In this document: positions 42,859-54,946 of the stretch, piece by piece
Layout: each line of letters begins with the position of its first letter
Position numbering within the stretch: the stretch's first letter is position 1
DNA from: Angustibacter luteus
GTDB lineage: Bacteria; Actinomycetota; Actinomycetes; Actinomycetales; Angustibacteraceae
Assembly: GCF_039541115.1 (NCBI RefSeq)
Contig: NZ_BAABFP010000007.1
Span: 558,001-622,000, forward strand
Length of the DNA: 64,000 bases
Reading direction: 5' to 3'
The notes under the pieces: model-generated
The model's database searches: none
Told to the model about the DNA's origin: nothing
The model's input: the letters and a program-made list of their open reading frames with translations, nothing else
Program-made: the position numbers and the translations under genes

Positions 42859-43896
42859 TCAACGGCCGAGCAGCTCCGCGCGGTACGACGGCCAGTGCCC
42901 GGCCGGGGTCTCGACGGACTCGGCGGCCAGCACGGCCCGCACGACGGCCCTCGTCGTGCAGTCGGCGGCCGCCGCGAGCAGCTCGTGCAGGGCCGCCGGG
43001 CCGGGCGCCGGACGTCGAGCGGTGGACAACGCGAAGGCCGTGTCACCGTCGAACATGGTGTGCACGGGCGAGATGGCGCGGGCCAGGCCGTCGTGGGCGA
43101 TCCCGGCGACCTTCGCGCAACGGGCCTTGGTCAGGACGGCGTCGGTGGCCACCACGACCAGGGTGGTGGCCAGCGGCTCCGGCGGCAGCAGGGCGCGGCG
43201 CATCGCCTCGACCCGCTCCCGATGCCCTTGCAGCGCAGCCGGCTCCGGCCGTGGCGGCGGTTCGGTCAGCAGGTGCCGGGCGCCCCACAGCTCGCCGGTC
43301 CGCGGGTCGAGCACCGAGCCGACCGCGTTGACCACGACCAGTGCGGCGACCGCCGTCCCGTCGTCGAGCACCTGGCTGGCCGAGCCCACGCCACCCTTGA
43401 GCCCGCCGGCGAGCGCGCCGGTCCCGGCGCCCACGTTGCCCTCCCGCACAGCGAGTCCGCCGGCCTCGGACCAGGCGTCCGCGCAGGCCAGCCGTCCGGA
43501 CTCCGGGCCGGGCCGTGCCCGGACGCCGCCACCGCGGCCGAGGTCGAAGATGACCGCGGCCGGCACGATCGGCACGATGCCGGCGGCCCCCACGGGGTAG
43601 CCGATCCCGGCGTCCTCGAGGGCCGACATCACCCCGTCCGCCGCGCTGAGCCCGTAGGCGCTGCCGCCGGTGAGCAGCAGTGCGTGCACGCTCTCGTTGC
43701 CGTGCAACGGGTTCAGCAGGTCGGTCTCCCGGGTGCCCGGGCCGCCGCCACGGACGTCGACCCCGCCCACGGCGCCGTCCGGGCCGGTGAGCACGACGGT
43801 CGATCCGGTGAGCCACCCGTCACCCGCGTGGGTGGCGTGCCCGACCCGGATCCCCGGGACGTCGACCAGCGAGTCGGTCGCTCCGCTGACCGTCAC
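42859..43896 (-). CDS. P1/S58 (DmpA-like) peptidase
   Basis: GGGPGTRETD, GGSAYGL, HTMFDGDT. Confidence 0.88.
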   Translation of the reverse strand: MTVSGATDSLVDVPGIRVGHATHAGDGWLTGSTVVLTGPDGAVGGVDVRGGGPGTRETDLLNPLHGNESVHALLLTGGSAYGLSAADGVMSALEDAGIGYPVGAAGIVPIVPAAVIFDLGRGGGVRARPGPESGRLACADAWSEAGGLAVREGNVGAGTGALAGGLKGGVGSASQVLDDGTAVAALVVVNAVGSVLDPRTGELWGARHLLTEPPPRPEPAALQGHRERVEAMRRALLPPEPLATTLVVVATDAVLTKARCAKVAGIAHDGLARAISPVHTMFDGDTAFALSTARRPAPGPAALHELLAAAADCTTRAVVRAVLAAESVETPAGHWPSYRAELLGR

Positions 43897-45602
43897 GACG
43901 GGGTCGGGTCGTCGCGCTCGTCCTCCTCGCGGGCGGGTAGCCCGACCACCTCACGCGCATCGACGGCGCTCTCGCCCGGAGGGAGGTTGGACAGGTCCGG
44001 TGCGATCACGGTGGGCATCTGCCCGGAGTCGGGGAGCCCGATGTGCGGCACCGCACCGACGCCCGGTGCCAGCACGAGCTCGGCCTGCCCGCGGGTCAGG
44101 GTGCGCCCGGCGAAGAAGTCCGGCCGGATCCGCGCGTAGACCTCCATCAGCACGACCCCGAGGACCAGCGAGCCGATCCCGAGCAGGAAGACCCCGCCGA
44201 TGCCGAACAGGGTGGTCTCGCCGTAGTCCGACTGGGAGTAGAGCTTGGCGGCGATGACGAAGGCACCGAGCAGCATGATGCCGCCGGCCAGCGGCAGCAC
44301 CCCCTGCATGACCAGGTCACGGAAGTTCCGGGTGAGGGTGCGCCGGTAGAACCACACGCAGGCGAAACCGGTGAGGCCGTAGTAGAACGCGATGAGCAGC
44401 CCGACGGCAGCGATCGAGTCCGCCAGGATGTTCTCGCTGACCAGCGTCAGGCCGACGTAGAAGACGATGGAGACCGCGCCCATCCAGACGGTCGACACAC
44501 TGGGCGTCAGGTAGCGCGGGTGGATCCTCGCGAACCGTGCCGGGATGGCCCGGTAGGCGCTCATCGACAGCGTGGTGCGGGCGGTCGGCAGGATCGTGGT
44601 CTGCGTGGAGGCCGACGCCGACGTGAGCACGCTGATCACCAGCAGTCCCTCCATCAGGCGGCCGAACGTGCTGTCGCCGAACACCGTCTGGCCGAGCGCG
44701 CGGAACACGTCGTCGGCGTTGTCGAGGTTGCCGAGCCCGATCCCGCTGGTCCCGACGCCGGCGAACGCCACGGTGGCGATCGAGACGATCGCGTAGGTGG
44801 CCAGCAGCAGGACGGTGGCGATGATGGCGGCCCGACCCGGCGTCCGGCCCGGGTCGTCGCTCTCCTCGTTGCAGGCGACCGCGGTGTCCCAGCCCCAGTA
44901 GATGAAGACCGCGATGAGCGTGGCGGTGACGACCGAGCTCAACGGCAGGCCGGTCGGGATCAGCCAGGACAGGCTCGGGTGCAGCGATCCCGGCGGGGCG
45001 TTGCCGGTGTAGACCTTGATCAGCGCGTAGGCGCTGAACACGACCAGCACCGTGACCTCGACGCTCAGCAACGCGTACTGGACGCGCGCGGACACCTCGA
45101 TGCCGCGGTAGCAGATGTACGTCATCAGGATGATCCACACGATCCCGGCGACCGTGCTCCAGAAGGTGCTGTCCGCCAACGAGTCCGCGCCGACCAGCTC
45201 GAAGCTGTACGACCCGGCGATCTGGGCCAGGTTGGCCATGACGATCACGTCGGCGGCGATGATGCCCCAGCCGCCCATCCACCCGACTCGTGCCCCGAAG
45301 GCCCGCGCGGCCCAGGTGAAGGTGGTCCCGCAGTCCGGCTCGGCCTTGTTCAGCTCGGCGTAGGCCACCGCGATGAAGTACATCGGCACGAACGCGAGGA
45401 GCATGATGGCCGGCGCCTTCACGCCGACGATGCCGTCACCTGCGGTCGTCGCGACGACGAAGCCCAGGCTGGCAGCGAGGCTGTACGCCGGCGCGGTGCT
45501 CGACATGCCGATGACGACGCTCGAGACCAGACCGAGAGCGCCGCCCTTCAAGCCCTTGCTTCCGGACGCCGCCGTGTCGGCGTTCGTCATGGCTTCAGCC
45601 AT
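43893..45602 (-). CDS. APC-family amino acid/polyamine permease
   Basis: 12 TM, STAPAYSL, FIYWGWD. Confidence 0.9.
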   Translation of the reverse strand: MAEAMTNADTAASGSKGLKGGALGLVSSVVIGMSSTAPAYSLAASLGFVVATTAGDGIVGVKAPAIMLLAFVPMYFIAVAYAELNKAEPDCGTTFTWAARAFGARVGWMGGWGIIAADVIVMANLAQIAGSYSFELVGADSLADSTFWSTVAGIVWIILMTYICYRGIEVSARVQYALLSVEVTVLVVFSAYALIKVYTGNAPPGSLHPSLSWLIPTGLPLSSVVTATLIAVFIYWGWDTAVACNEESDDPGRTPGRAAIIATVLLLATYAIVSIATVAFAGVGTSGIGLGNLDNADDVFRALGQTVFGDSTFGRLMEGLLVISVLTSASASTQTTILPTARTTLSMSAYRAIPARFARIHPRYLTPSVSTVWMGAVSIVFYVGLTLVSENILADSIAAVGLLIAFYYGLTGFACVWFYRRTLTRNFRDLVMQGVLPLAGGIMLLGAFVIAAKLYSQSDYGETTLFGIGGVFLLGIGSLVLGVVLMEVYARIRPDFFAGRTLTRGQAELVLAPGVGAVPHIGLPDSGQMPTVIAPDLSNLPPGESAVDAREVVGLPAREEDERDDPTPS

Positions 45603-45644
45603 CGTGACCTCCCGGGTCGGTGCCGAGCGTAGGGTCGCAGCGGA

Positions 45645-46454
45645 TCACTGGTCCAGGTCGACCTGGGCGAGGGTCACGCCCGGCGCCGCGCTCAGCGGCG
45701 TCGTCGTCCGCCAACGACCGGCGGTCTCCGTGGCGCAGGTGGCGGCCCTGGCCCCGCTCAGGTCCGGGCAGACGAGGTTCAGGATCGTCGACCCTTGCGG
45801 GGTCAGCTGGACGGTCAGGCCCAGCCCGTCCTCGGTGGCAGCGCCGATCGGCGCCAGGGTGGTCAGTGCCCGCCCGGGCACGGACTGCCGGGACCGGACC
45901 GTGGTCCCGACGAGCTGGTAGCGCAGCACCAGCTCGGTCGACGGCGAGGTCAGGGCGACGAAGCTGGGTTCGGTGGTGACCCGACGTGGCGCGGTGACCG
46001 GCCGGCCGTCGGCGGTCAGCGTCACGCCGAGCGCCTGCGGGACCTGTTCCGGCGCGGACGTCGGGTCCTGGGTCGCCGCCGGGCGTTGCACGCCGAGCAC
46101 GACGACGTCCCGCGGCTCGCGCAGGTGCAGGCGTTCCACCACGTCGATCGTGCCGTCGCCCTTGAGCGTGGCGGACACCAGGATCCCCGATGCCGCCGGC
46201 GCGATCGCCTCCTCCGGTGTCGGCCGCAGGTCGGCGGTCACCCGACCGGGGCTGCCCAGCTGGGGCGGTCGGTCGTACCGGATGACGGCGACCGTCGAAC
46301 CGGCGAGCGCCACGACCAGCAGGGTCAGCGCGGCGGGGACGAGGCTGCGGCGCAGCCAGAGGAGGCGCCGGCTCGGTGGTGCACCGGGCACGGGTCGAGC
46401 CATGAACTGGGGCAGGCGGACGTGTCCGGCGAGGCGGTCGAGCCAGTGCGCCAC
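45645..46454 (-). CDS. Hypothetical single-pass membrane protein
   Basis: AAGGAGG RBS before GTG 46454; one TM followed by a beta-rich domain with a Cys pair. Confidence 0.6.
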   Translation of the reverse strand: MAHWLDRLAGHVRLPQFMARPVPGAPPSRRLLWLRRSLVPAALTLLVVALAGSTVAVIRYDRPPQLGSPGRVTADLRPTPEEAIAPAASGILVSATLKGDGTIDVVERLHLREPRDVVVLGVQRPAATQDPTSAPEQVPQALGVTLTADGRPVTAPRRVTTEPSFVALTSPSTELVLRYQLVGTTVRSRQSVPGRALTTLAPIGAATEDGLGLTVQLTPQGSTILNLVCPDLSGARAATCATETAGRWRTTTPLSAAPGVTLAQVDLDQ

Positions 46455-46559
46455 GGGCACCTCCTTACTTTCCGCAACTGTCGCACGGTGACACGTGCGG
46501 CGGTACCGTGCAATTCCGCGATATTCACCACGGAACGTGATCATGGGAAGCGGACACCG

Positions 46560-47429
46560 ATGAACCAACGACGCAGAGTGACCTTGGCTGGGCTTGCCCT
46601 CACGATGCTCGGCGCGCTGCTGGCACCGTCGAGCGTCGCCGCCGCTGCCACCCCCTCCGTTCGGATCTACCTGCTCAACGGATTGCCCGGGCACAGCGTC
46701 GGCGTTCGCGTCGACGGGCGCTCGGTGGTCGGTGCGCTCGCTGCGGCGCACCAGCTCGGCCCGGTGCTGGTCCCTCGCGGCACGCACAAGGTCGAGTTCG
46801 TGTCCGCCGGTCGGATCGTGGCGACGAGCTCGATGACGGTCACGGCCGCTAGCAGCGACGTGGTGATCCACCGCCGGGTCGGCGCGAGCCGGGTCCCCGA
46901 GGTGACCGTGTTCGAGAACGACGTGAGCCGGGTGCCGAGCGGTCAGGGCCGGATCACGGTGGCGCACGTCGCCGCGATCGGGCCGGCCGACATCAGGGTC
47001 GACAAGAAGGTGGTGTTCGCCAACGTCGCCAACGGGGAGTTCAGCTCGGTGAAGGTCCCGTCGGGCAGCTACTCGGTGGACGTGGTGCCGACCGGGACCA
47101 CCGGCCCCGGCGTGCTCGGACCGTTGACCCTCAAGGTCACGCCCGGCGCGCTGACCCGCGTCTACGCCGTGGGGGACACCCAGGACGCGAGCATGAACGC
47201 CATCGTCCAGGTCATCCGGCTCGGCTCGAGCGGCGGGGACCCGACGCGGGTCGAGTCCGGCACCGGTGGTCAGGCAGCAGCGGCGGGGCTGACCACGTCC
47301 GGCGCGACCGGCGGGCCGACCGGACGAGCGGGCGCCTTCGCGCTGGTGGCCGCCCTGCTCGCCCTGGCACTCGTCCCCGGGCCGCGCCGTCGACTCATCC
47401 GCCGGGTTCGCCGTCCCGAGCGCGGCTAG
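46560..47429 (+). CDS. DUF4397-like secreted protein with C-terminal sorting signal
   Basis: Signal peptide; VAHVAAIGPADI, VPSGSYSVDV; C-terminal PTRVESGTGG, TM and RRR tail. Confidence 0.8.
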   Translation: MNQRRRVTLAGLALTMLGALLAPSSVAAAATPSVRIYLLNGLPGHSVGVRVDGRSVVGALAAAHQLGPVLVPRGTHKVEFVSAGRIVATSSMTVTAASSDVVIHRRVGASRVPEVTVFENDVSRVPSGQGRITVAHVAAIGPADIRVDKKVVFANVANGEFSSVKVPSGSYSVDVVPTGTTGPGVLGPLTLKVTPGALTRVYAVGDTQDASMNAIVQVIRLGSSGGDPTRVESGTGGQAAAAGLTTSGATGGPTGRAGAFALVAALLALALVPGPRRRLIRRVRRPERG

Positions 47430-47432
47430 CCG

Positions 47433-48092
47433 GTGCGGGGCCGAGCGTCGGCGCTCCTGCTGTCGCTGCTCGCGCTGTCGACGGGAGCGGGCTGCGCGAC
47501 CTCGAGCGGGGGCCACCCGGCTGCGGTGAGCACGTCGAGCAGTGCCAGGGCGTCCGCCGAGGCGCAGCCGCCGTTGCCGTCCGCCACCGCAGGTGCCGCC
47601 CGGCAGGGCGCGCCGGCACCGAGCCAGCTGCGCACGGCGGTTCCGGAGGCGGTCGTGCTGCCGGACGGAGTCCGCATGGTCGTGCGCCCGGTCGGTGCGG
47701 ACGCCCGAGGACGGCTCGCCGTGCCGGACGACGTGCACCAGGCCGGGTGGTGGTCCGGCGGTGCCCGGCTGGGCGACCGGTACGGGTCGATGGTGCTGGT
47801 CGGCCACGTCGACGCGGCCTCCCAGGGCATCGGCGACATGGCCGGCGTGCTGCGCTCGAGGAAGGGCGACCGGGTGCGGGTCGACGGTGCCGGACTGGCG
47901 CAGACGTACCAGGTGACGGCGACCCGCCAGCTCCCGAAGGGGGACCTGGCCGGGGCTGTGGTCGGCGGCGCTCGGCTGTTCGACCAGCGGACGCCGTCCA
48001 GGCTGGTGCTGGTGACCTGCTCGGGCCCGTTCGACCCGGCCACCCGGCACTACCGGGACAACTTCGTCGTGGTGGCCGCACCGGTGGCCTGA
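47433..48092 (+). CDS. Class F sortase
   Basis: LVGHVD, LVLVTCSGPF, YRDNFVV. Confidence 0.88.
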   Translation: MRGRASALLLSLLALSTGAGCATSSGGHPAAVSTSSSARASAEAQPPLPSATAGAARQGAPAPSQLRTAVPEAVVLPDGVRMVVRPVGADARGRLAVPDDVHQAGWWSGGARLGDRYGSMVLVGHVDAASQGIGDMAGVLRSRKGDRVRVDGAGLAQTYQVTATRQLPKGDLAGAVVGGARLFDQRTPSRLVLVTCSGPFDPATRHYRDNFVVVAAPVA

Positions 48093-48144
48093 CCCCCGGC
48101 TGGTGCCGTCACGTCGGGACGGCGGAGCGGGCTAGGGTCCGGTC

Positions 48145-49371
48145 ATGCGCATCCTGCTGGTCGGGTCCGGTGGCGTCGGGGACGCCTTCGCCCGCATCGC
48201 CGTCCGCCGTCCCTTCTTCGAGCAGCTCGTGGTCGCGGACTACGACCTGGCCCGGGCCGAGCGCACCGTCGCGGCGGTCGACGACCCTCGAGTGCTCGCG
48301 GCCCAGGTGGACGCGTCGTCCGCGCAGTCGGTCACGGACCTGGCGCGCGCGCACCAGGTCACCCACGTGATGAACGCGGTCGACCCGCGGTTCGTGATGC
48401 CCGTCTTCGAGGGTGCCTTCGCGGCCGGTGCGGACTACCTGGACATGGCGATGAGCCTGTCCCAGCCGCACCCCGAGCACCCGCACCGGCAGACCGGTGT
48501 GATGCTCGGCGACGAGCAGTTCGCGGTCGCGACCGACTGGGAGGCCGCCGGCCGGCTGGCCCTGGTCGGCATGGGGGTGGAGCCGGGGCTGTCCGACGTG
48601 TTCGCCCGGTACGCCTGCGACCACCTGTTCAGCCAGGTCGACGAGCTCGGCACCCGGGACGGCTCGAACCTGACGGTGGACGGCTACGAGTTCGCGCCGT
48701 CGTTCTCGATCTGGACGACGATCGAGGAGTGCCTGAACCCGCCCGTGGTGTGGGAGGCCGACCGCGGCTGGTTCACCACGGCGCCGTTCAGCGAGCCCGA
48801 GGTCTTCGACTTCCCGGACGGCATCGGTCCCGTGGAGTGCGTGAACGTGGAGCACGAGGAGGTGCTGCTGATGCCGCGCTGGCTCGACGCGAAGCGAGTC
48901 ACGTTCAAGTACGGGCTGGGCGAGGAGTTCATCGACGTCCTGCGCACGCTGCACAAGCTGGGACTCGACTCGACCGAGCCCGTGCGGGTCGGTGGGGTGC
49001 AGGTCAGCCCGCGGGACGTCGTCGCCGCGTGCCTGCCGGACCCGGCGGGGCTGGGGGACCGGATGCACGGCAAGACCTGCGCCGGGCTGTGGGTCACGGG
49101 CACCGGGACGGACGGGCAGCCGCGCGAGGTGTACCTCTACCACGTCGTCGACAACGACTGGTCGATGCAGGAGTACGGCGCGCAGTGCGTGGTGTGGCAG
49201 ACCGCGGTCAACCCCGTGGTCGCGCTCGAGCTGCTCGCGACGGGCGCGTGGTCCGGGTCGGGTGTGCTCGGTCCCGAGGCCTTCGACGCCGTGCCGTTCC
49301 TGGACCTGCTCCGCGACGGCTACGGGTCACCGTGGGGGCTGCGCGAGCAGACCCCGGGCCCAGCCAGCTAG
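48145..49371 (+). CDS. Saccharopine dehydrogenase-like oxidoreductase (carboxy(nor)spermidine dehydrogenase-like)
   Basis: VGSGGVG, YLDMA, GMGVEPGLS, EHEEV, GVLGPEAFD. Confidence 0.82.
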   Translation: MRILLVGSGGVGDAFARIAVRRPFFEQLVVADYDLARAERTVAAVDDPRVLAAQVDASSAQSVTDLARAHQVTHVMNAVDPRFVMPVFEGAFAAGADYLDMAMSLSQPHPEHPHRQTGVMLGDEQFAVATDWEAAGRLALVGMGVEPGLSDVFARYACDHLFSQVDELGTRDGSNLTVDGYEFAPSFSIWTTIEECLNPPVVWEADRGWFTTAPFSEPEVFDFPDGIGPVECVNVEHEEVLLMPRWLDAKRVTFKYGLGEEFIDVLRTLHKLGLDSTEPVRVGGVQVSPRDVVAACLPDPAGLGDRMHGKTCAGLWVTGTGTDGQPREVYLYHVVDNDWSMQEYGAQCVVWQTAVNPVVALELLATGAWSGSGVLGPEAFDAVPFLDLLRDGYGSPWGLREQTPGPAS

Positions 49372-50729
49372 TCGCCGGCGACCGCGGACTCGAGGACGTC
49401 GAGCGCCTCGGCCAGCAGGGCGTCGTCGATCACCAGCGGGGGCAGGAAGCGCAGCACGTTGCCGAAGGTGCCGCAGGTGAGCGTCAGCACACCCTGCTGG
49501 TGGCAGGCAGCGCTGATCCGGGCGGCCTCGGCCGGGTCGGGGTCGGTGCTGCCGGGCACGACCAGCTCGATGGCGACCATCGCGCCGCGGCCCCGGACGT
49601 CGCCGATCTGCGCGTGCTGACCGGCCAGTGCGGAGAGCCGGTCCAGCATCGTCCGACCGATGGCGGCGGCACGGCCCGCCAGGTCGTCCTCCTCGAGCGA
49701 CTCCAGGGCGCCCAGCGCCGCGGCGCAGGCGACCGGGTTGCCGCCGTAGGTGCCACCGAGGCCGCCGGCGTGCACCGCGTCCATCAGCTCGGCGCGGCCG
49801 GTGACCGCAGCGAGCGGCAGGCCCCCCGCGATGCCCTTGGCGGTCGTGATCAGGTCCGGCACCACGCCCTCGTCGTCGCATGCGAACAGCGTGCCGGTCC
49901 GGCCGAACCCGGTCTGGATCTCGTCGGCGACGAAGACGATGCCGTTCTCGGTGCACCACTGCGCGATGGCCGGCAGGAAGCCCGGCGCCGGGACGACGAA
50001 GCCGCCCTCGCCCTGGATCGGCTCGATCACGACGGCGGCGACCTCGTCGGCGCCCACCTGCTTGTCGATGACCGAGATCGCGCGACGCGCGGCCTCCGCG
50101 CCGCTGATCGGCACCGGCTCGCGGAACGGGTAGCTCATCGGGGCCCGGTAGACCTCGCCCGCGAACGGGCCGAAGCCGTGCTTGTACGGCATGGACTTCG
50201 CCGTCATGGCCATCGTGAGGTTGGTGCGGCCGTGGTAGGCGTGGTCGAAGACGACCACGGCGTCGCGGCCGGTGGCCACCCGGGCGATCTTGACCGCGTT
50301 CTCCACCGCCTCGGCGCCGGAGTTGAACAGCGCCGACTTCTTCGCGTGGTCGCCGGGGGTGAGCCGGGCCAGCGCCTCGCAGACCGCGACGTAGCCCTCG
50401 TACGGGGTGACCATGAAGCAGGTGTGGGTGAACTGCTGCACCTGCTCGGTGACCCGGGCGACGACCCGCGGGTTGGCGTTGCCCACGTTGACCACGGCGA
50501 TGCCCGAGCCCAGGTCGATCAGCGAGTTGCCGTCGACGTCCTGCAGCACGCCACCACCGGCGCGGGCGATGTAGACCGGCAGGGTGGTCCCGACGCCGTC
50601 GGCGACTGCCGCCTGCTTGCGCGCGTGCAGCGCACGCGAGCGCGGCCCGGGGATCTCGGTCAGCAGCTCGCGGCGCTGAGGAACTCCGTCGGCGACGGCG
50701 GGGGACGTGGACTCGCGCAGGTCGGTCAT
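49368..50729 (-). CDS. gabT: 4-aminobutyrate:2-oxoglutarate transaminase
   Basis: NSGAEAVENAVK, EPIQGEGG, DEIQTGFGRTG, AKGIAGG, GGTYGGNP. Confidence 0.93.
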   Translation of the reverse strand: MTDLRESTSPAVADGVPQRRELLTEIPGPRSRALHARKQAAVADGVGTTLPVYIARAGGGVLQDVDGNSLIDLGSGIAVVNVGNANPRVVARVTEQVQQFTHTCFMVTPYEGYVAVCEALARLTPGDHAKKSALFNSGAEAVENAVKIARVATGRDAVVVFDHAYHGRTNLTMAMTAKSMPYKHGFGPFAGEVYRAPMSYPFREPVPISGAEAARRAISVIDKQVGADEVAAVVIEPIQGEGGFVVPAPGFLPAIAQWCTENGIVFVADEIQTGFGRTGTLFACDDEGVVPDLITTAKGIAGGLPLAAVTGRAELMDAVHAGGLGGTYGGNPVACAAALGALESLEEDDLAGRAAAIGRTMLDRLSALAGQHAQIGDVRGRGAMVAIELVVPGSTDPDPAEAARISAACHQQGVLTLTCGTFGNVLRFLPPLVIDDALLAEALDVLESAVAGD

Positions 50730-50876
50730 GGCTCGCAGACTAGCCACGAGGCCGACCGGCCCGCACCGCCAGAGTGCGGCCCACGGGCCCGGACGGCTGA
50801 CAGTGTGACGCCCGACCCACCCGTGCGCTGGACTAGCGTCGAGCCGCGACCACCCGACCACCCGAAGGAGCCCGCG

Positions 50877-52340
50877 GTGACCCAGCAGGACGAGCGACGC
50901 GTCGTCGAGGCCGTACCCCAGGGCCTGTTCATCGGCGGTCAGTGGCGGCCGGCGTCCGACGGCGCCGAGCTGAAGGTGCTCGACCCCTCCACCGAAGAGG
51001 TGCTGACCACCGTCGCCGACGCCTCGGTGGCCGACGGCCGCGAGGCGCTGGACGCTGCGGTTGCCGCGCAGGCGGGGTGGGCCGCCACGCCGCCGCGCGA
51101 CCGCGGCGAGATCCTGCGCGCGGCCTACGAGAAGGTCACCGAGCGCGCGGAGGACCTCGCGCTGCTGATGACGCTCGAGATGGGCAAGCCGCTGAAGGAG
51201 GCGCTGGGCGAGATCACCTACGGCGCCGAGTTCTTCCGGTGGTTCTCCGAGGAGGCCGTGCGCATCTCCGGTCGCTGGTCGACGGCCCCGAACGGCGCCA
51301 CCCGGCTGCTCACCATGAAGCAGCCCGTGGGGCCGTGCCTGATGATCACGCCCTGGAACTTCCCGCTCGCGATGGGCACCCGCAAGATCGGCCCCGCCAT
51401 CGCGGCCGGCTGCACGATGGTGGTCAAGCCGGCGTCCCAGACCCCGCTGACCATGTACGCGCTCGCCCAGATCCTCACCGAGTGCGGGCTGCCGGACGGC
51501 GTCCTCAACGTGGTGACGACGTCCCACACCGGCGACGTGATGGAGCCGCTGATCCGCGACCCCCGGCTGCGCAAGCTGACCTTCACCGGGTCCACGCCGG
51601 TCGGCCGCCGGCTGGTCGAGCAGTCGGCCGAGGGCCTGCTGCGGGTGTCGATGGAGCTCGGTGGGAACGCCCCGTTCATCGTCTTCGGCGACGCCGACCT
51701 GGACCGCGCCGTGGACGGCGCCATGCTCGCCAAGATGCGCAACATCGGCGAGGCCTGCACCGCGGCGAACCGGTTCATCGTGCACGAGTCGGTCTCGGCC
51801 GAGTTCTCCGCCCGGCTGGCCGAGCGGATGGGCGCGCTCACCGTCGGTCGGGGGACCGAGGACGGCGTGGACGTCGGTCCGCTGATCGACGGCACCCAGC
51901 GGGACAAGGTGGCCGAGCTCGTCCAGGACGCCGTCGACCTCGGGGGCAAGGTCCTCACCGGTGGGGGAGCACTGGACGGCAAGGGCTTCTACTTCGCGCC
52001 CACCGTGCTGGGCGACGTCCCGACCCAGGCGCGGGTCTTCGGCGAGGAGATCTTCGGCCCGGTCGCGCCGATCACCACCTTCGCCACGGACGACGAGGCG
52101 CTGGCGCTGGCCAACGACACCGAGTACGGGCTGATCGCCTACGCCTTCACCCGCGACCTGGCCCGAGCCCTCGCCGTCGCCGAGGGCCTGGAGACCGGCA
52201 TGGTCGGGATCAACGCGGGGGTGGTGTCCAACCCGGCGGCGCCGTTCGGCGGCGTCAAGGCCAGCGGGTTCGGTCGCGAGGGCGGCGCCGAGGGCATCGA
52301 GGAGTACCTCGAGACCAAGTACGTCGGCATCGCCCCCTGA
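50877..52340 (+). CDS. gabD: NAD(P)-dependent succinate-semialdehyde dehydrogenase
   Basis: PWNFP, MELGGNAP, RNIGEACTAAN, FGREGG; AAGGAG RBS before GTG 50877. Confidence 0.9.
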   Translation: MTQQDERRVVEAVPQGLFIGGQWRPASDGAELKVLDPSTEEVLTTVADASVADGREALDAAVAAQAGWAATPPRDRGEILRAAYEKVTERAEDLALLMTLEMGKPLKEALGEITYGAEFFRWFSEEAVRISGRWSTAPNGATRLLTMKQPVGPCLMITPWNFPLAMGTRKIGPAIAAGCTMVVKPASQTPLTMYALAQILTECGLPDGVLNVVTTSHTGDVMEPLIRDPRLRKLTFTGSTPVGRRLVEQSAEGLLRVSMELGGNAPFIVFGDADLDRAVDGAMLAKMRNIGEACTAANRFIVHESVSAEFSARLAERMGALTVGRGTEDGVDVGPLIDGTQRDKVAELVQDAVDLGGKVLTGGGALDGKGFYFAPTVLGDVPTQARVFGEEIFGPVAPITTFATDDEALALANDTEYGLIAYAFTRDLARALAVAEGLETGMVGINAGVVSNPAAPFGGVKASGFGREGGAEGIEEYLETKYVGIAP

Positions 52341-52351
52341 CATCCCCGGCG

Positions 52352-52474
52352 TCACCCGTTCGGCCCAATCGCTCGGCGTGTCGGTGGCTGGCTGCCCGGG
52401 AAAGTCGAAGTTCCCGTGCTGGACTAGTCCGTTCGGGTGCATTCGGGTCCGATCGCACTGACCCGAACGGGTGA
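52352..52474. promoter_or_regulatory. Cluster of BldM/WhiI-like 16-bp boxes
   Basis: TCACCCGTTCGGCCCA (52352), TAGTCCGTTCGGGTGC (52425), TGACCCGAACGGGTGA (52459). Confidence 0.6.
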
Positions 52475-52517
52475 GATGCTCACCCACAGGTAGTGAGTTT
52501 CGGTAACTTCCTGCGAC

Positions 52518-52532
52518 GTGACGCTGCGTGCG
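52518..52532. promoter_or_regulatory. BldD-box-like palindrome
   Basis: GTGACGCTGCGTGCG, one mismatch to NTNACNC(A/T)GNGTNAN. Confidence 0.5.
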
Positions 52533-52594
52533 GCTTCAATCGCTCACAGCGATACAGCCCGCCCGGGGCTGCCCCGCATCGCTGAGGAGTGCCG

Positions 52595-52699
52595 ATGAAG
52601 AAGAAGTCCCCTGTCAGCGCGGTCGTTCGCCTCAGTGCGGGCGTGCTCCCCGTGATCACCCTGGTGTCGGTGCTCGGCGCCGGCTCCAAGTGGTGGTGA
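52595..52699 (+). CDS. 34-aa signal-peptide-like micropeptide ending GAGSKWW (candidate precursor)
   Basis: GAGGAG (52584-52589), 5 nt, ATG; MKKKSPVSAVVRLSAGVLPVITLVSVLGAGSKWW*; below the ORF-track size cut-off. Confidence 0.8.
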   Translation: MKKKSPVSAVVRLSAGVLPVITLVSVLGAGSKWW

Positions 52700-52758
52700 T
52701 CGCCGTGCTGACGCGCAGCGAAGACACGCAGTACCTGCCCGGTTACAAGTGGGTCTAG
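52696..52758 (+). CDS. 20-aa micropeptide ending PGYKWV
   Basis: GTGA start/stop overlap with the preceding micro-ORF; MIAVLTRSEDTQYLPGYKWV*; alternative GTG starts at 52690, 52693 and 52705. Confidence 0.6.
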   Translation: MIAVLTRSEDTQYLPGYKWV

Positions 52759-52780: not shown

Positions 52781-54946
52781 ATGAAGCGACCCTCGCCCCT
52801 CGCGCTCTACGTCGCCTGCGTCGCCCTGCTGGGCGCGCTCGTGGCGGCGTGGAGCCTGTGGGGTGTCGGTCTCGCGGAGCTGGCCCGTACCGCCCCGAAC
52901 CCGGTGTGGTTCCTGGCGGTCGGGCTGGTTCTGGGCGAGCTCATGCCGATCCCCGTGGCCCGCGGGGACGACGAGACGTCCAACGTCACGATGTCGACCA
53001 CCTTCGCCGTGGCGCTGGTGACCACCGGACCCTTCGCCCTGCTCCTGCTGGTGCACACCATGGCCGTCGCGATCGACGACCTGCGCACCCGCCGGAGCGT
53101 GGCCAAGGTGCTGTTCAACTTCGGCCAGTACGCCGTGTCGTTGGCCGCCGCCCGCGCGGCGTTCTGCGTCATCACCGGCACGAGCTTCCACGCCGGCTAC
53201 ACCCCGCTGGACGCCAGCGAGCTGCCCGCGGCCCTCGTCGCGGGCTTCACGTTCATCATGCTCAACAACGGTCTCGTCGCCGTCGTCGTCGCCCTGGCCA
53301 CCCGCCAGCCGGTGCTGGCGATGCTGCGCGAGGACCTCGCATTCAAGCTCGAGACGTCCAGCGTGCTGCTCGGCCTGGCGCCGGTCGCCGCCGTGCTCGC
53401 CGAGATGAGCGGCTGGCTCCTACCCCTGCTCGCGCTGCCTGTCCTGGCGGTCCGCCGCTCCGCGGCGCTGGCCGTGGCCCGGCAGTCCCAGGCCCTGCGC
53501 GACGCCCTGACCGGACTGGGCAACCGCGAGCTCTTCTTCGGCCGCGCCGAGCGCATGCTCGCCGCCTACGAGCGCACCGAGAGTCCCTTCGCGGTGCTGA
53601 TGATCGACCTCGACCACTTCAAGGACATCAACGACACGCTCGGCCACCAGGTCGGTGACCGGGTCATCCAGACGGTCGGTGCCCGCATCGCGCACGCCGG
53701 CGGCCCCGACGGCTGCGTCGCCCGGCTCGGTGGCGACGAGTTCGCCATCACCATCCCCGGCGTGGACGTCGCGCAGGCGAGCGCCGCCGCCGAGACGCTG
53801 CTGTCCGACATCGTCCGTCCGCTGCACGTCGGCGGCATCCGGATGGTCATCCACGCCAGCGTCGGCATCGCCATGGCCGAGCCCGGCGTCGACGTCACCA
53901 CGCTGATGCAGCGGGCGGACATCGCCCTCTACGAGGCCAAGCGGGACCGCGCCCGGTGGTGCCTGTACGACGTCCAGTCCTCGACGGCGACCCCCGAGCG
54001 CCTCGGGCTGCTCGCCGACCTGCGCGACGCGATCGACCTGCGGCAGATCTCCGTGCACTTCCAGCCGCAGGTCGCGCTCAACGGCGGCCGCGTCTTCGGC
54101 GCCGAGGCGCTCGCGCGCTGGGACCACCCCGAGCGCGGCTCGGTCGCGCCCGAGGAGTTCATCGCCCTGGCCGAGCACGCCGGGCTCATCGACCAGGTGA
54201 CCGACATCGTCCTCGAGGAGTCGCTGGACGCGCTGGCCAGCTGGTCCCAGATGGGCATCGCCGCCCGCGTCTCGGTGAACCTGTCGGCCCGGCAGCTGGC
54301 CGACCTGGGGCTGCCCGAGCGGTTGCGTGACGCGTTGCGCCGGCACGGTGTCTCGCCGGGCCAGCTGACCGCGGAGGTGACCGAGGGCAGCATCATGGGC
54401 GACCCCCGGCGGGCCGCGCAGGTGCTGCACGAGCTCCGCCAGGAGGGCATCCGGATCGCCGTCGACGACTTCGGCACCGGCTACTCCTCGCTGGCCTACC
54501 TGCAGCGCCTGGACCTCGACGAGCTGAAGATCGACCGCAGCTTCGTGCAGTCGATGGGCGCCGTCTCGCGGGACGACGTGCTCGTCCGCTCGATCATCGA
54601 GCTCGCGCACAACCTCGGCCTGTCGGTGGTCGCCGAGGGCGTCGAGACCCCGGGGCAGGTCGAACGACTGCGCGAGCTGCAGTGCGACGCCGCCCAGGGC
54701 TACCACCTCGGTCGGCCGATGGACCGCGAGATGATGACCGCCTGGCTGCGTCGCGACACCATGCTCGAGCCCCTGCGGCTGCCCGAGGAGGACCACAGCG
54801 AGGACACCCTGCACGGTCTCGTGCAGGGGCTGGCCCACCTCGAGCCGTTCGGCCCGGCCGAGGCCGTGCCCGCCGTCCCGGCGACCGGTCGGTCCGGCAA
54901 GCCGACCCACCTGCGCGCCGTCCGGTCCGGACAGGGAACGGCGTGA
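52781..54946 (+). CDS. Membrane-bound GGDEF-EAL protein with multi-TM N-terminal sensor region
   Basis: ~230-aa hydrophobic N-terminus; DALTGLGNR, RLGGDEF, AEALARW, DDFGTGYSS, KIDRSFV, VAEGVE. Confidence 0.93.
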   Translation: MKRPSPLALYVACVALLGALVAAWSLWGVGLAELARTAPNPVWFLAVGLVLGELMPIPVARGDDETSNVTMSTTFAVALVTTGPFALLLLVHTMAVAIDDLRTRRSVAKVLFNFGQYAVSLAAARAAFCVITGTSFHAGYTPLDASELPAALVAGFTFIMLNNGLVAVVVALATRQPVLAMLREDLAFKLETSSVLLGLAPVAAVLAEMSGWLLPLLALPVLAVRRSAALAVARQSQALRDALTGLGNRELFFGRAERMLAAYERTESPFAVLMIDLDHFKDINDTLGHQVGDRVIQTVGARIAHAGGPDGCVARLGGDEFAITIPGVDVAQASAAAETLLSDIVRPLHVGGIRMVIHASVGIAMAEPGVDVTTLMQRADIALYEAKRDRARWCLYDVQSSTATPERLGLLADLRDAIDLRQISVHFQPQVALNGGRVFGAEALARWDHPERGSVAPEEFIALAEHAGLIDQVTDIVLEESLDALASWSQMGIAARVSVNLSARQLADLGLPERLRDALRRHGVSPGQLTAEVTEGSIMGDPRRAAQVLHELRQEGIRIAVDDFGTGYSSLAYLQRLDLDELKIDRSFVQSMGAVSRDDVLVRSIIELAHNLGLSVVAEGVETPGQVERLRELQCDAAQGYHLGRPMDREMMTAWLRRDTMLEPLRLPEEDHSEDTLHGLVQGLAHLEPFGPAEAVPAVPATGRSGKPTHLRAVRSGQGTA

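Follow-up and report, generated by a model that had tools for sequence, protein, structure and literature searches.

A conserved leaderless GxKW peptide gene upstream of a MASE9-GGDEF-EAL enzyme in Angustibacter luteus: a candidate intracellular ligand

The widespread sensor domain MASE9 is described as an eight-helix membrane domain fused to GGDEF-EAL; the available text of that description names no MASE9 ligand and suggests that binding takes place within the membrane (Galperin and Chou, bioRxiv 10.1101/2021.11.05.467447). Streptomyces RmdB, in the accessible parts of the reports on it, has eight predicted helices in residues 1-238/243 followed by GGDEF and EAL domains, and no input signal is named there (PMC13232838, PMC6205966). 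A sensor domain with the ECF S-component fold is known from the 5TMR-LYT kinases BtsS and YpdA, which add an extra helix at the N-terminus. In the accessible text on these kinases, conserved residues face a central cavity that opens outwards, H0 starts outside, the cytoplasmic domains follow on helix 6, and small metabolites serve as ligands; MASE domains are not mentioned in that text on S-component-fold receptors (PMC11109136). Among peptide systems, the look-alike short peptides cCF10 and iCF10 arise from small precursors and compete at PrgX inside the cell. As far as the available text goes, each peptide leaves the cell and is taken up again, and PrgX is a soluble regulator of the RRNPP type (PMC7117660).

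The locus described here lies in a 64,000-nucleotide stretch of the Angustibacter luteus genome, the whole of which we call the window (Table 1). Where the accessible text on published MASE9 enzymes names no peptide, DUF5317 or fold (10.1101/2021.11.05.467447), this locus has two peptide genes and a sensor domain with an S-component-like fold. That fold is shared with 5TMR-LYT as described in the text available (PMC11109136); unlike 5TMR-LYT, the MASE9 domain adds an eighth helix and carries its loop charges the other way round, and its cavity probably lies on the inside. Eight predicted helices followed by GGDEF-EAL also make the window sensor like Streptomyces RmdB, a likeness by description only. 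In contrast to cCF10 and iCF10, one of the two peptides here is leaderless (RRNPP pairs carry an export leader on both), the two genes form one coupled cistron pair, and a membrane-bound c-di-GMP enzyme is the candidate receptor. By analogy, the two ORFs may work like a pheromone and its inhibitor, yet without the features of RRNPP membership; no soluble TPR-type (RRNPP) receptor occurs among the genes flanking the cassette. Literature searches, with most subscription papers outside their reach, returned nothing on DUF5317 or on a MASE9 ligand, no S-component sensor with an inward pocket, no peptide pair with a never-exported member, and nothing linking an S-component-type membrane sensor, c-di-GMP and a small peptide in Actinobacteria.

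Table 1. Features of the peptide-sensor cassette, in window coordinates.
Feature	Position	Strand	Remarks
Putative regulator site, CCG-WW-CGGGTGA type box	52463..52474		Conserved in a 12-sequence DNA alignment
Promoter-like conserved block 5' of the peptide genes	52518..52552	+	Invariant alignment columns
ORF1 ribosome-binding site GAGGAG	52584..52589	+	Pairing -8.1 kcal/mol
ORF1, 34-aa precursor-like peptide	52595..52699	+	Basic N-terminus, hydrophobic stretch, C-terminus LGAGSKWW
Shine-Dalgarno-like sequence of ORF2	52692..52701	+	-15.7 kcal/mol, 8 nt spacing to 52705
ORF2, leaderless 17-aa peptide	52705..52758	+	Probable start GTG 52705; in-frame GTG 52696 gives 20 aa
ORF2 conserved core, codons P-G-Y-K-W-V and stop	52738..52758	+	Conservation
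MASE9-type membrane domain, eight helices	52781..53485	+	ECF S-component fold; pocket side inferred cytoplasmic
GGDEF and EAL domains	53492..54946	+	Same 721-aa protein (52781-54946); catalytic motifs present
DUF5317 membrane protein, five helices	54951..55493	+	Candidate ORF1 processing partner

The cassette consists of two short ORFs, a c-di-GMP enzyme and a DUF5317 protein. The gene order is aldehyde dehydrogenase, ORF1, ORF2, MASE9-GGDEF-EAL enzyme, DUF5317 and dxr, with no transporter gene from the aldehyde dehydrogenase to dxr. ORF1 translates as MKKKSPVSAVVRLSAGVLPVITLVSVLGAGSKWW, its last residues being GAGSKWW; it has no Pfam match, and three ESM Atlas clusters at 0.88 are a lead only. 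Several CCG-WW-CGGGTGA-type boxes, a CTAG element and the conserved block lie within 52353-52552, and the set is repeated before each duplicated pair of peptide genes in relatives; the box also precedes these pairs in the 12-sequence DNA alignment. A sigma-70 consensus scan of the conserved block gave no match, and scans for sigma-70 promoters and intrinsic terminators were empty. Judged by their sequence, the boxes could be a regulator site for c-di-GMP feedback; BldD as that regulator would be a guess. Further upstream (43893-52340), translations suggest an amino-acid permease, a saccharopine-dehydrogenase-like gene, a 4-aminobutyrate aminotransferase and the aldehyde dehydrogenase, and similar genes flank the cassette at two other loci (L071 and L083).

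ORF2 is almost certainly a real gene, conserved among soil actinobacteria and coupled to ORF1. Its frame has in-frame GTG codons at 52690, 52693, 52696 and 52705 and ends in a TAG stop at 52756-52758; read from 52696 it gives VIAVLTRSEDTQYLPGYKWV. The earlier note had proposed this 20-aa version, starting at a GTG that overlaps the ORF1 stop. The overlap is present in the sequence (GTG 52696-52698, TGA 52697-52699, together GTGA), and the frame and the stop stand, but 52705 is the likelier start. Pairing with the 16S 3' tail, for which we assumed the consensus, amounts to -15.7 kcal/mol before GTG 52705 versus -5.2 before 52696, and the pairing sequence is built from the last codons and the stop of ORF1. 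Relatives start ORF2 after the ORF1 stop even where ORF1 does not end in Trp-TGA and hence no GTGA overlap exists, and the best-paired start is at +5 from that stop in 13 of the 26 leaderless pairs described below. Given the stronger pairing before 52705 and the start position in relatives, the product is probably 17 aa long, MLTRSEDTQYLPGYKWV, with the C-terminus ...YLPGYKWV. The GTGA overlap probably follows from Trp-TGA as a side effect, with coupling kept as a start a few bases past the stop. Two adjacent ORFs ending in GxKW had also been judged unlikely to arise by chance, and the numbers bear this out: in the whole genome (4,159,170 bases), G-x-K-W-x(0-3)-stop occurs at only three six-frame sites among 98,940 stops, two of which are ORF1 and ORF2, and the chance of a second site within 200 nt is about 7e-5.

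Tandem GxKW ORFs recur in homologous loci. We found DUF5317 in 52 of 301 genomes of the order and examined 40 DUF5317-centred regions (39 of 60 listed places plus the G002 locus), together with the best 80 of 569 further loci from the genome collection. In these 80, frames ending [GA]xK[WF]x(0-3)-stop number 96 on the cassette strand versus 2 on the opposite strand; 58 loci have at least one, and several others are cut by a contig end or carry a variant motif. After removal of duplicates, 111 loci yielded 48 adjacent peptide pairs, which we sorted by eye into 22 with a hydrophobic ORF2 and 26 with a short, mostly hydrophilic ORF2 of 13-30 aa; ORF2 is intermediate in hydropathy at two loci (L030 and L081). 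Three more loci with a leaderless ORF2 (L046, L049 and G002) stand outside the count of 26, their ORF1 being off-pattern or DUF5317 missing from the locus; at L046 the entire ORF2 is MAGKKWG. Mean hydropathy over the 18 residues before the motif is -0.34 in the 26 leaderless ORF2s versus 1.55 in their ORF1s, and the ORF2 bodies contain no conserved export signal. This fits the suggestion of a variant without signal peptide that is not exported. In all 26 leaderless pairs the motif frame has a start codon (ATG in 20) between -1 and +8 nt relative to the stop of ORF1, versus 1 of 52 at the same position in the other frames. Thus the reading frame and stop position are conserved in relatives, which the earlier note had set as a test, and translational coupling is supported.

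The C-terminal motif is the conserved part of ORF2. A pattern search for PGYKW[VIAT]-stop found 22 occurrences in 18 of 401 genomes of the order, representing five family codes. Twenty lie no more than 3 kb upstream of DUF5317, one precedes the sensor of G002, which has no DUF5317, and the last follows an ORF1-type gene where a contig ends; the 401 genomes have none elsewhere. The reversed control pattern gave seven scattered matches. Among the 16 PGYKW copies found through DUF5317 rather than through the pattern, all four Gly codons and two Pro codons are in use, and the bodies are 26% identical, versus 47% for ORF1 bodies. The motif and stop are therefore kept while the rest differs, as had been noticed from the window itself. 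In these relatives, which are not independent, the six C-terminal residues and the stop of ORF2 carry the pattern of purifying selection, and ORF2 very probably acts as a peptide through this motif. A looser pattern, [AP]GxKWx-stop, stood at background level in 301 class genomes, and a metagenome scan with the sensor domain gave only one weak locus among 200 candidates. Among 20 DUF5317 loci in further classes of the same phylum, eight have one hydrophobic peptide with a related basic-aromatic end, in a scan that favoured hydrophobic ORFs and says little on leaderless forms.

First and second ORFs fall into distinct motif classes. The residue x of GxKW is S, T, V, I, L or Q in the first ORF and Y, K, R or H in the second in all 48 pairs. 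The residue before Gly is Ala in 102 of 102 hydrophobic peptides, none of which has Pro, and Pro in 22 of 26 leaderless ORF2s. In Demequina aestuarii (L103), a single full precursor ends VGAGYKWV, with the same five residues as the window ORF2. Since ORF2 is a full hydrophobic precursor in 22 other pairs, the leader was lost; together with the conserved C-terminal motif, these precursors support the earlier proposal that ORF2 is a paralogue of ORF1. On trees of the sensor domain and DUF5317 (93 rows, then 43 of these 93), leaderless loci are scattered among hydrophobic-ORF2 loci, and starred branches force at least five label changes. In tests on groups named after the first tree was seen, a single clade of the PGYKW and PGRKW groups was rejected (p-AU 1.9e-6); one clade of all leaderless loci was not (p-AU 0.078), although lnL fell by 470. 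As the two Pro-type leaderless groups do not form one clade, Pro at -1 arose at least twice. The leader was thus apparently lost, and Pro gained, two or more times, provided that the peptides followed the operon tree.

Some loci depart from this layout. At G009, against the strict rule, the leaderless peptide is the first one, with Thr as x, and at L055 a coupled ORF lacks the motif. Single-peptide loci without ORF2 sit inside the PGYKW clade (L072, L077 and L117), so ORF2 is dispensable. Motif variants occur in other classes (L082, L093, L108, L120, L127, L139, L207, L214, L215, L220 and L222); those of Acidimicrobiia read A-P-x-K-[WY], often in hydrophobic pairs, and a further variant is GGAH[WFI][RK]. 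A reading of the window ORFs as a Trp attenuator was rejected, as most relatives do not retain the second Trp.

The sensor domain of the enzyme resembles an S-component. Pfam assigns GGDEF (E 3e-41) and EAL (E 6e-76) domains to the protein, and PF20972 (MASE9) matches positions 65-188 of 203 with E 7.2e-5 and 23.2 bits, versus a cut-off of 24.3. The protein has the traits of MASE9: eight membrane segments, a short hairpin pair, conserved aromatic and Asn/Ser residues, and the fusion to GGDEF-EAL. A search of 48,161 chains with a model of the sensor domain (pLDDT 95, 88 sequences) placed NikM (Z 13.7, rmsd 3.7 over 188 aligned residues) and CbiM (Z 13.6) at the top, and all of the 15 best structural matches, down to Z 8.3, are S-components of the ECF type or BtuM; the first match outside this fold family has Z 6.2 or lower. 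Foldseek also ranked CbiM/NikM first, but with an E of only 0.013.

We propose that MASE9 is an inverted S-component whose pocket would face the cytoplasm, on the basis of the model, helix count and loop charges. The six-helix core spans model residues ~33-213 and is followed by the eighth helix, which brings GGDEF to the membrane face that bears the lid hairpin and the L3 and L5 loops; MASE9 helices were mapped to the S-component by aligned ranges only. Lys and Arg together number 2.2, 3.5 and 2.3 per sequence in the lid hairpin, L3 and L5, and 0.6, 0.0, 1.3 and 0.05 in the opposite loops. The invariant or near-invariant residues (G52, E53, S72, F75, D100, F112, N113, Q116, Y117, N162 and L196) mostly cluster at the hairpin/L3/L5 end of the model. 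With its pocket inward, the domain could be reached by a leaderless cytoplasmic peptide. Asp100, a possible partner of the motif Lys, is present in each of the 7 sensors examined from loci of this type and in none of 8 ligA-adjacent paralogues. The other pocket residues, FNxxQY and N162 among them, are kept in these paralogues, including those of G001 and G005, genomes in which we found no DUF5317 and no cassette-type peptide, and are therefore not peptide-specific. A complex prediction for the G130 sensor domain with DUF5317 and its own 30-aa ORF2 scored 0.17 and 0.13 (mark 0.32), which speaks neither for nor against a complex, and sensor alignment against three class genomes of 6-9 Mb gave no match.

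The window genome has two more MASE9-type genes. One encodes a 705-aa GGDEF-EAL protein directly behind a DNA ligase gene (L170, G000:C2:214151-214840), RmdB-like by synteny; the RmdB gene presumably lies beside ligA, like the second MASE9 gene of the window genome. Another encodes a 478-aa HD-GYP protein (L171, G000:C2:367886-368533). No GxKW peptide lies in the 600 nt upstream of either gene. Distant MASE9-like genes at L012 and L019 stand behind ORFs ending in tandem Trp-containing repeats (ARSWA and GSRWN types), which are possibly another peptide input.

DUF5317 is a candidate processing partner of ORF1. The window protein matches the Pfam family with E 5e-25, its closest named homologue is that of Angustibacter peucedani (73%), and its model (pLDDT 93) has the invariant D135 and D153 in an outer loop. 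Cleavage of ORF1 between Ala and Gly is plausible. LspA (MEROPS A8) likewise has two invariant outward aspartates, and its substrates carry a lipobox cysteine. With a five-sequence LspA alignment, hhalign aligns the last helix and its FxVxD-type motif, a local resemblance at probability 0.4% and E 0.14. GxKW peptides differ from LspA substrates in having no lipobox cysteine; in the hydrophobic peptides listed, V/L-G-A is followed by Gly, with Pro or Ser in variants. Fold searches with DUF5317 gave no convincing match (best Z 7.0, helical hairpins only, with LspA absent from the listed matches), and no sequence match was found in the PDB. For ORF2, the short length and the Pro at -1 would suit a substrate of prolyl oligopeptidase (S9A), which the genome itself encodes (GGSNGG motif); a cut behind Pro would give a five-residue peptide in the same register as the ORF1 cut. 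Since 61 of 70 genomes, across all ORF2 types and layouts, have the prolyl oligopeptidase motif, it only permits such a cut.

Natural variants offer single cases that, judged from their sequences and taken together, link ORF1 with DUF5317 and ORF2 with the sensor. G002, a closed genome in one contig with a completeness score of 100%, is without any DUF5317 match, and its ORF1 has lost the basic N-terminus; it keeps PGYKWA and a sensor that is 79% identical, with all pocket residues present. Conversely, at four loci a single hydrophobic peptide gene adjoins DUF5317, and the region shows neither a MASE9 match nor an ORF2. At G008 both peptides, DUF5317 and the first sensor helix are lost and FNxxQY and N162 have decayed, which may simply follow from the deletion. 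In G029, G052 and G072 the pair is duplicated with its promoter, and the copy ~400 nt from the sensor keeps PGYKWV on a different body. At G090 one copy has lost ORF1, leaving ORF2 in frame behind the ribosome site and start of ORF1. The sensor-distal copies and the G090 deletion count for ORF2 action in trans, as far as sequence can tell.

Two further layouts were observed. In Demequina mangrovi and D. gelatinilytica (L100 and L104), two to four MASE9-GGDEF-EAL paralogues surround one peptide gene and one DUF5317 gene. At L037 and L051, a peptide gene and DUF5317 occur without a sensor and are followed by a 127-aa membrane protein, which we assume to be holin-family-like.

The explanation that we favour, though tentatively and with somewhat less than even confidence, is that ORF2 is a co-translated, cell-retained second ligand of MASE9 that sets c-di-GMP output. 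Its basis is the conservation of the peptide and the structural model of the sensor. Ribosomes ending ORF1 would restart at 52705, and both peptides would be made together. The working part of ORF2 would be the C-terminal [P]-G-Y-K-W-V, the rest being a free tail; both steps are supported by conservation. Without a leader, ORF2 would stay in the cytoplasm, where its tail might bind the inward MASE9 pocket, either whole or after a prolyl oligopeptidase cut behind Pro. It would thereby serve as a cell-autonomous ligand distinct from the ORF1 product (GYKWV versus GSKWW), and ORF1 would be the form handled at the membrane by DUF5317. The earlier note had suggested a paralogous ligand; the paralogue is supported by conservation, and the ligand receives indirect support from the inward MASE9 pocket and from the retention of ORF2 without DUF5317 at G002. 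That ORF2 acts as a counter-signal to ORF1, as iCF10 does to cCF10, is a guess by analogy. The main gap in the ligand account is that the ORF1 tail points outward and the proposed pocket inward. Re-import, as with the enterococcal pheromones (PMC7117660), and a toppling-like motion of the fold are possible routes. A wider version, in which an inverted-S-component MASE9 reads G-x-K-W through two channels, a DUF5317-handled signal and a private, leaderless, Pro-bearing twin, seems to us possible but doubtful on present sequences and models.

Several other roles for ORF2 deserve weighing. It could be a decoy that binds DUF5317 or another GxKW-recognising protein and slows ORF1 processing. The shared terminal motif, synthesis in step with ORF1, a Pro in place of Ala at -1 that could block the cut, and the peptide genes found with DUF5317 alone all speak for this. 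We nevertheless find it unlikely, as the invariant aspartates of DUF5317 sit beyond the reach of a cytoplasmic peptide, G002 retains ORF2 without DUF5317, and the four loci with only a peptide and DUF5317 have no ORF2. Also unlikely is a second extracellular signal that leaves the cell independently of a leader and acts from outside like the ORF1 product. The full precursor ancestry of ORF2 (22 pairs), the hydrophobic Demequina precursor ending in the same GYKWV, and the basic N-terminus of ORF1, which places its own motif outside, fit such a signal; the 13-30-aa bodies (26% identity) without conserved export signal, the cassette without transporter gene and the probable inward side of the pocket do not. 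It is quite unlikely that ORF2 works in cis, with translation or pausing at K-W-stop controlling sensor expression. The window sensor ATG, 22 nt past the ORF2 stop, is nearly without Shine-Dalgarno pairing (-0.7 kcal/mol), and at L055 a coupled ORF persists that lacks the motif, as expected for control in cis. Most loci (L064-L137) have a strong GC hairpin of 12-16 bp without U tract, 15-50 nt past the last peptide stop, and this hairpin is missing or weak in the PGYKW clade and weak in the window, which could fit control by translation. However, the hairpin also lies between ORF2 and the sensor at PGRKW and AGKKW loci, the distance from the ORF2 stop to the sensor varies widely, unlike the fixed spacing of leader or arrest peptides (uORF attenuators), the sensor-distal copies of duplicated pairs keep PGYKWV, and the motif also terminates hydrophobic precursors.

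Both peptides might be unprocessed membrane accessory subunits of the MgrB kind, with a soluble ORF2 whose K-W end docks at the inner face. DUF5317 has no demonstrable peptidase homology, and 18 of the 22 hydrophobic ORF2s have the more basic flank on their C-side, which would allow a tail-in orientation, although this charge count is crude (fixed 18-residue core) and partly follows from x being K or R. The reading is improbable, since the helix was repeatedly lost while the motif was kept, which argues against the helix as the binding element. It is very improbable that ORF2 is a duplicate in decay or the end of a frameshift or readthrough fusion with ORF1. In the window, no stop interrupts the ORF2 frame along the whole of ORF1 (76 codons), and ORF2 is lost in some relatives, but PGYKW is invariant over five family codes with synonymous change, and each ORF2 has its own start codon. 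The offset relative to ORF1, -1 in 20 pairs, +1 in 6 and 0 in none of the 26, excludes readthrough or a shared frameshift as the source of a fusion.

If the wider, two-channel version holds, the enzyme would weigh a peptide of the cell's own making against a shared one, and MASE9 would gain its first ligand, with a possible extension to RmdB-like developmental phosphodiesterases. ORF2 suggests on which side of the membrane a MASE9 ligand should be sought. With the leaderless ORF2, the candidate also shrinks from a membrane peptide of 34 residues to a soluble motif of six, which can be purchased for tests on purified enzyme. Because such ORFs are too short for normal annotation, this peptide layer is invisible in genome records. 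At the two loci with flanking genes similar to those of the window (L071 and L083), three or four peptide genes are arrayed upstream of a single sensor, and one peptide gene of these arrays carries an internal second GVKW-like motif.
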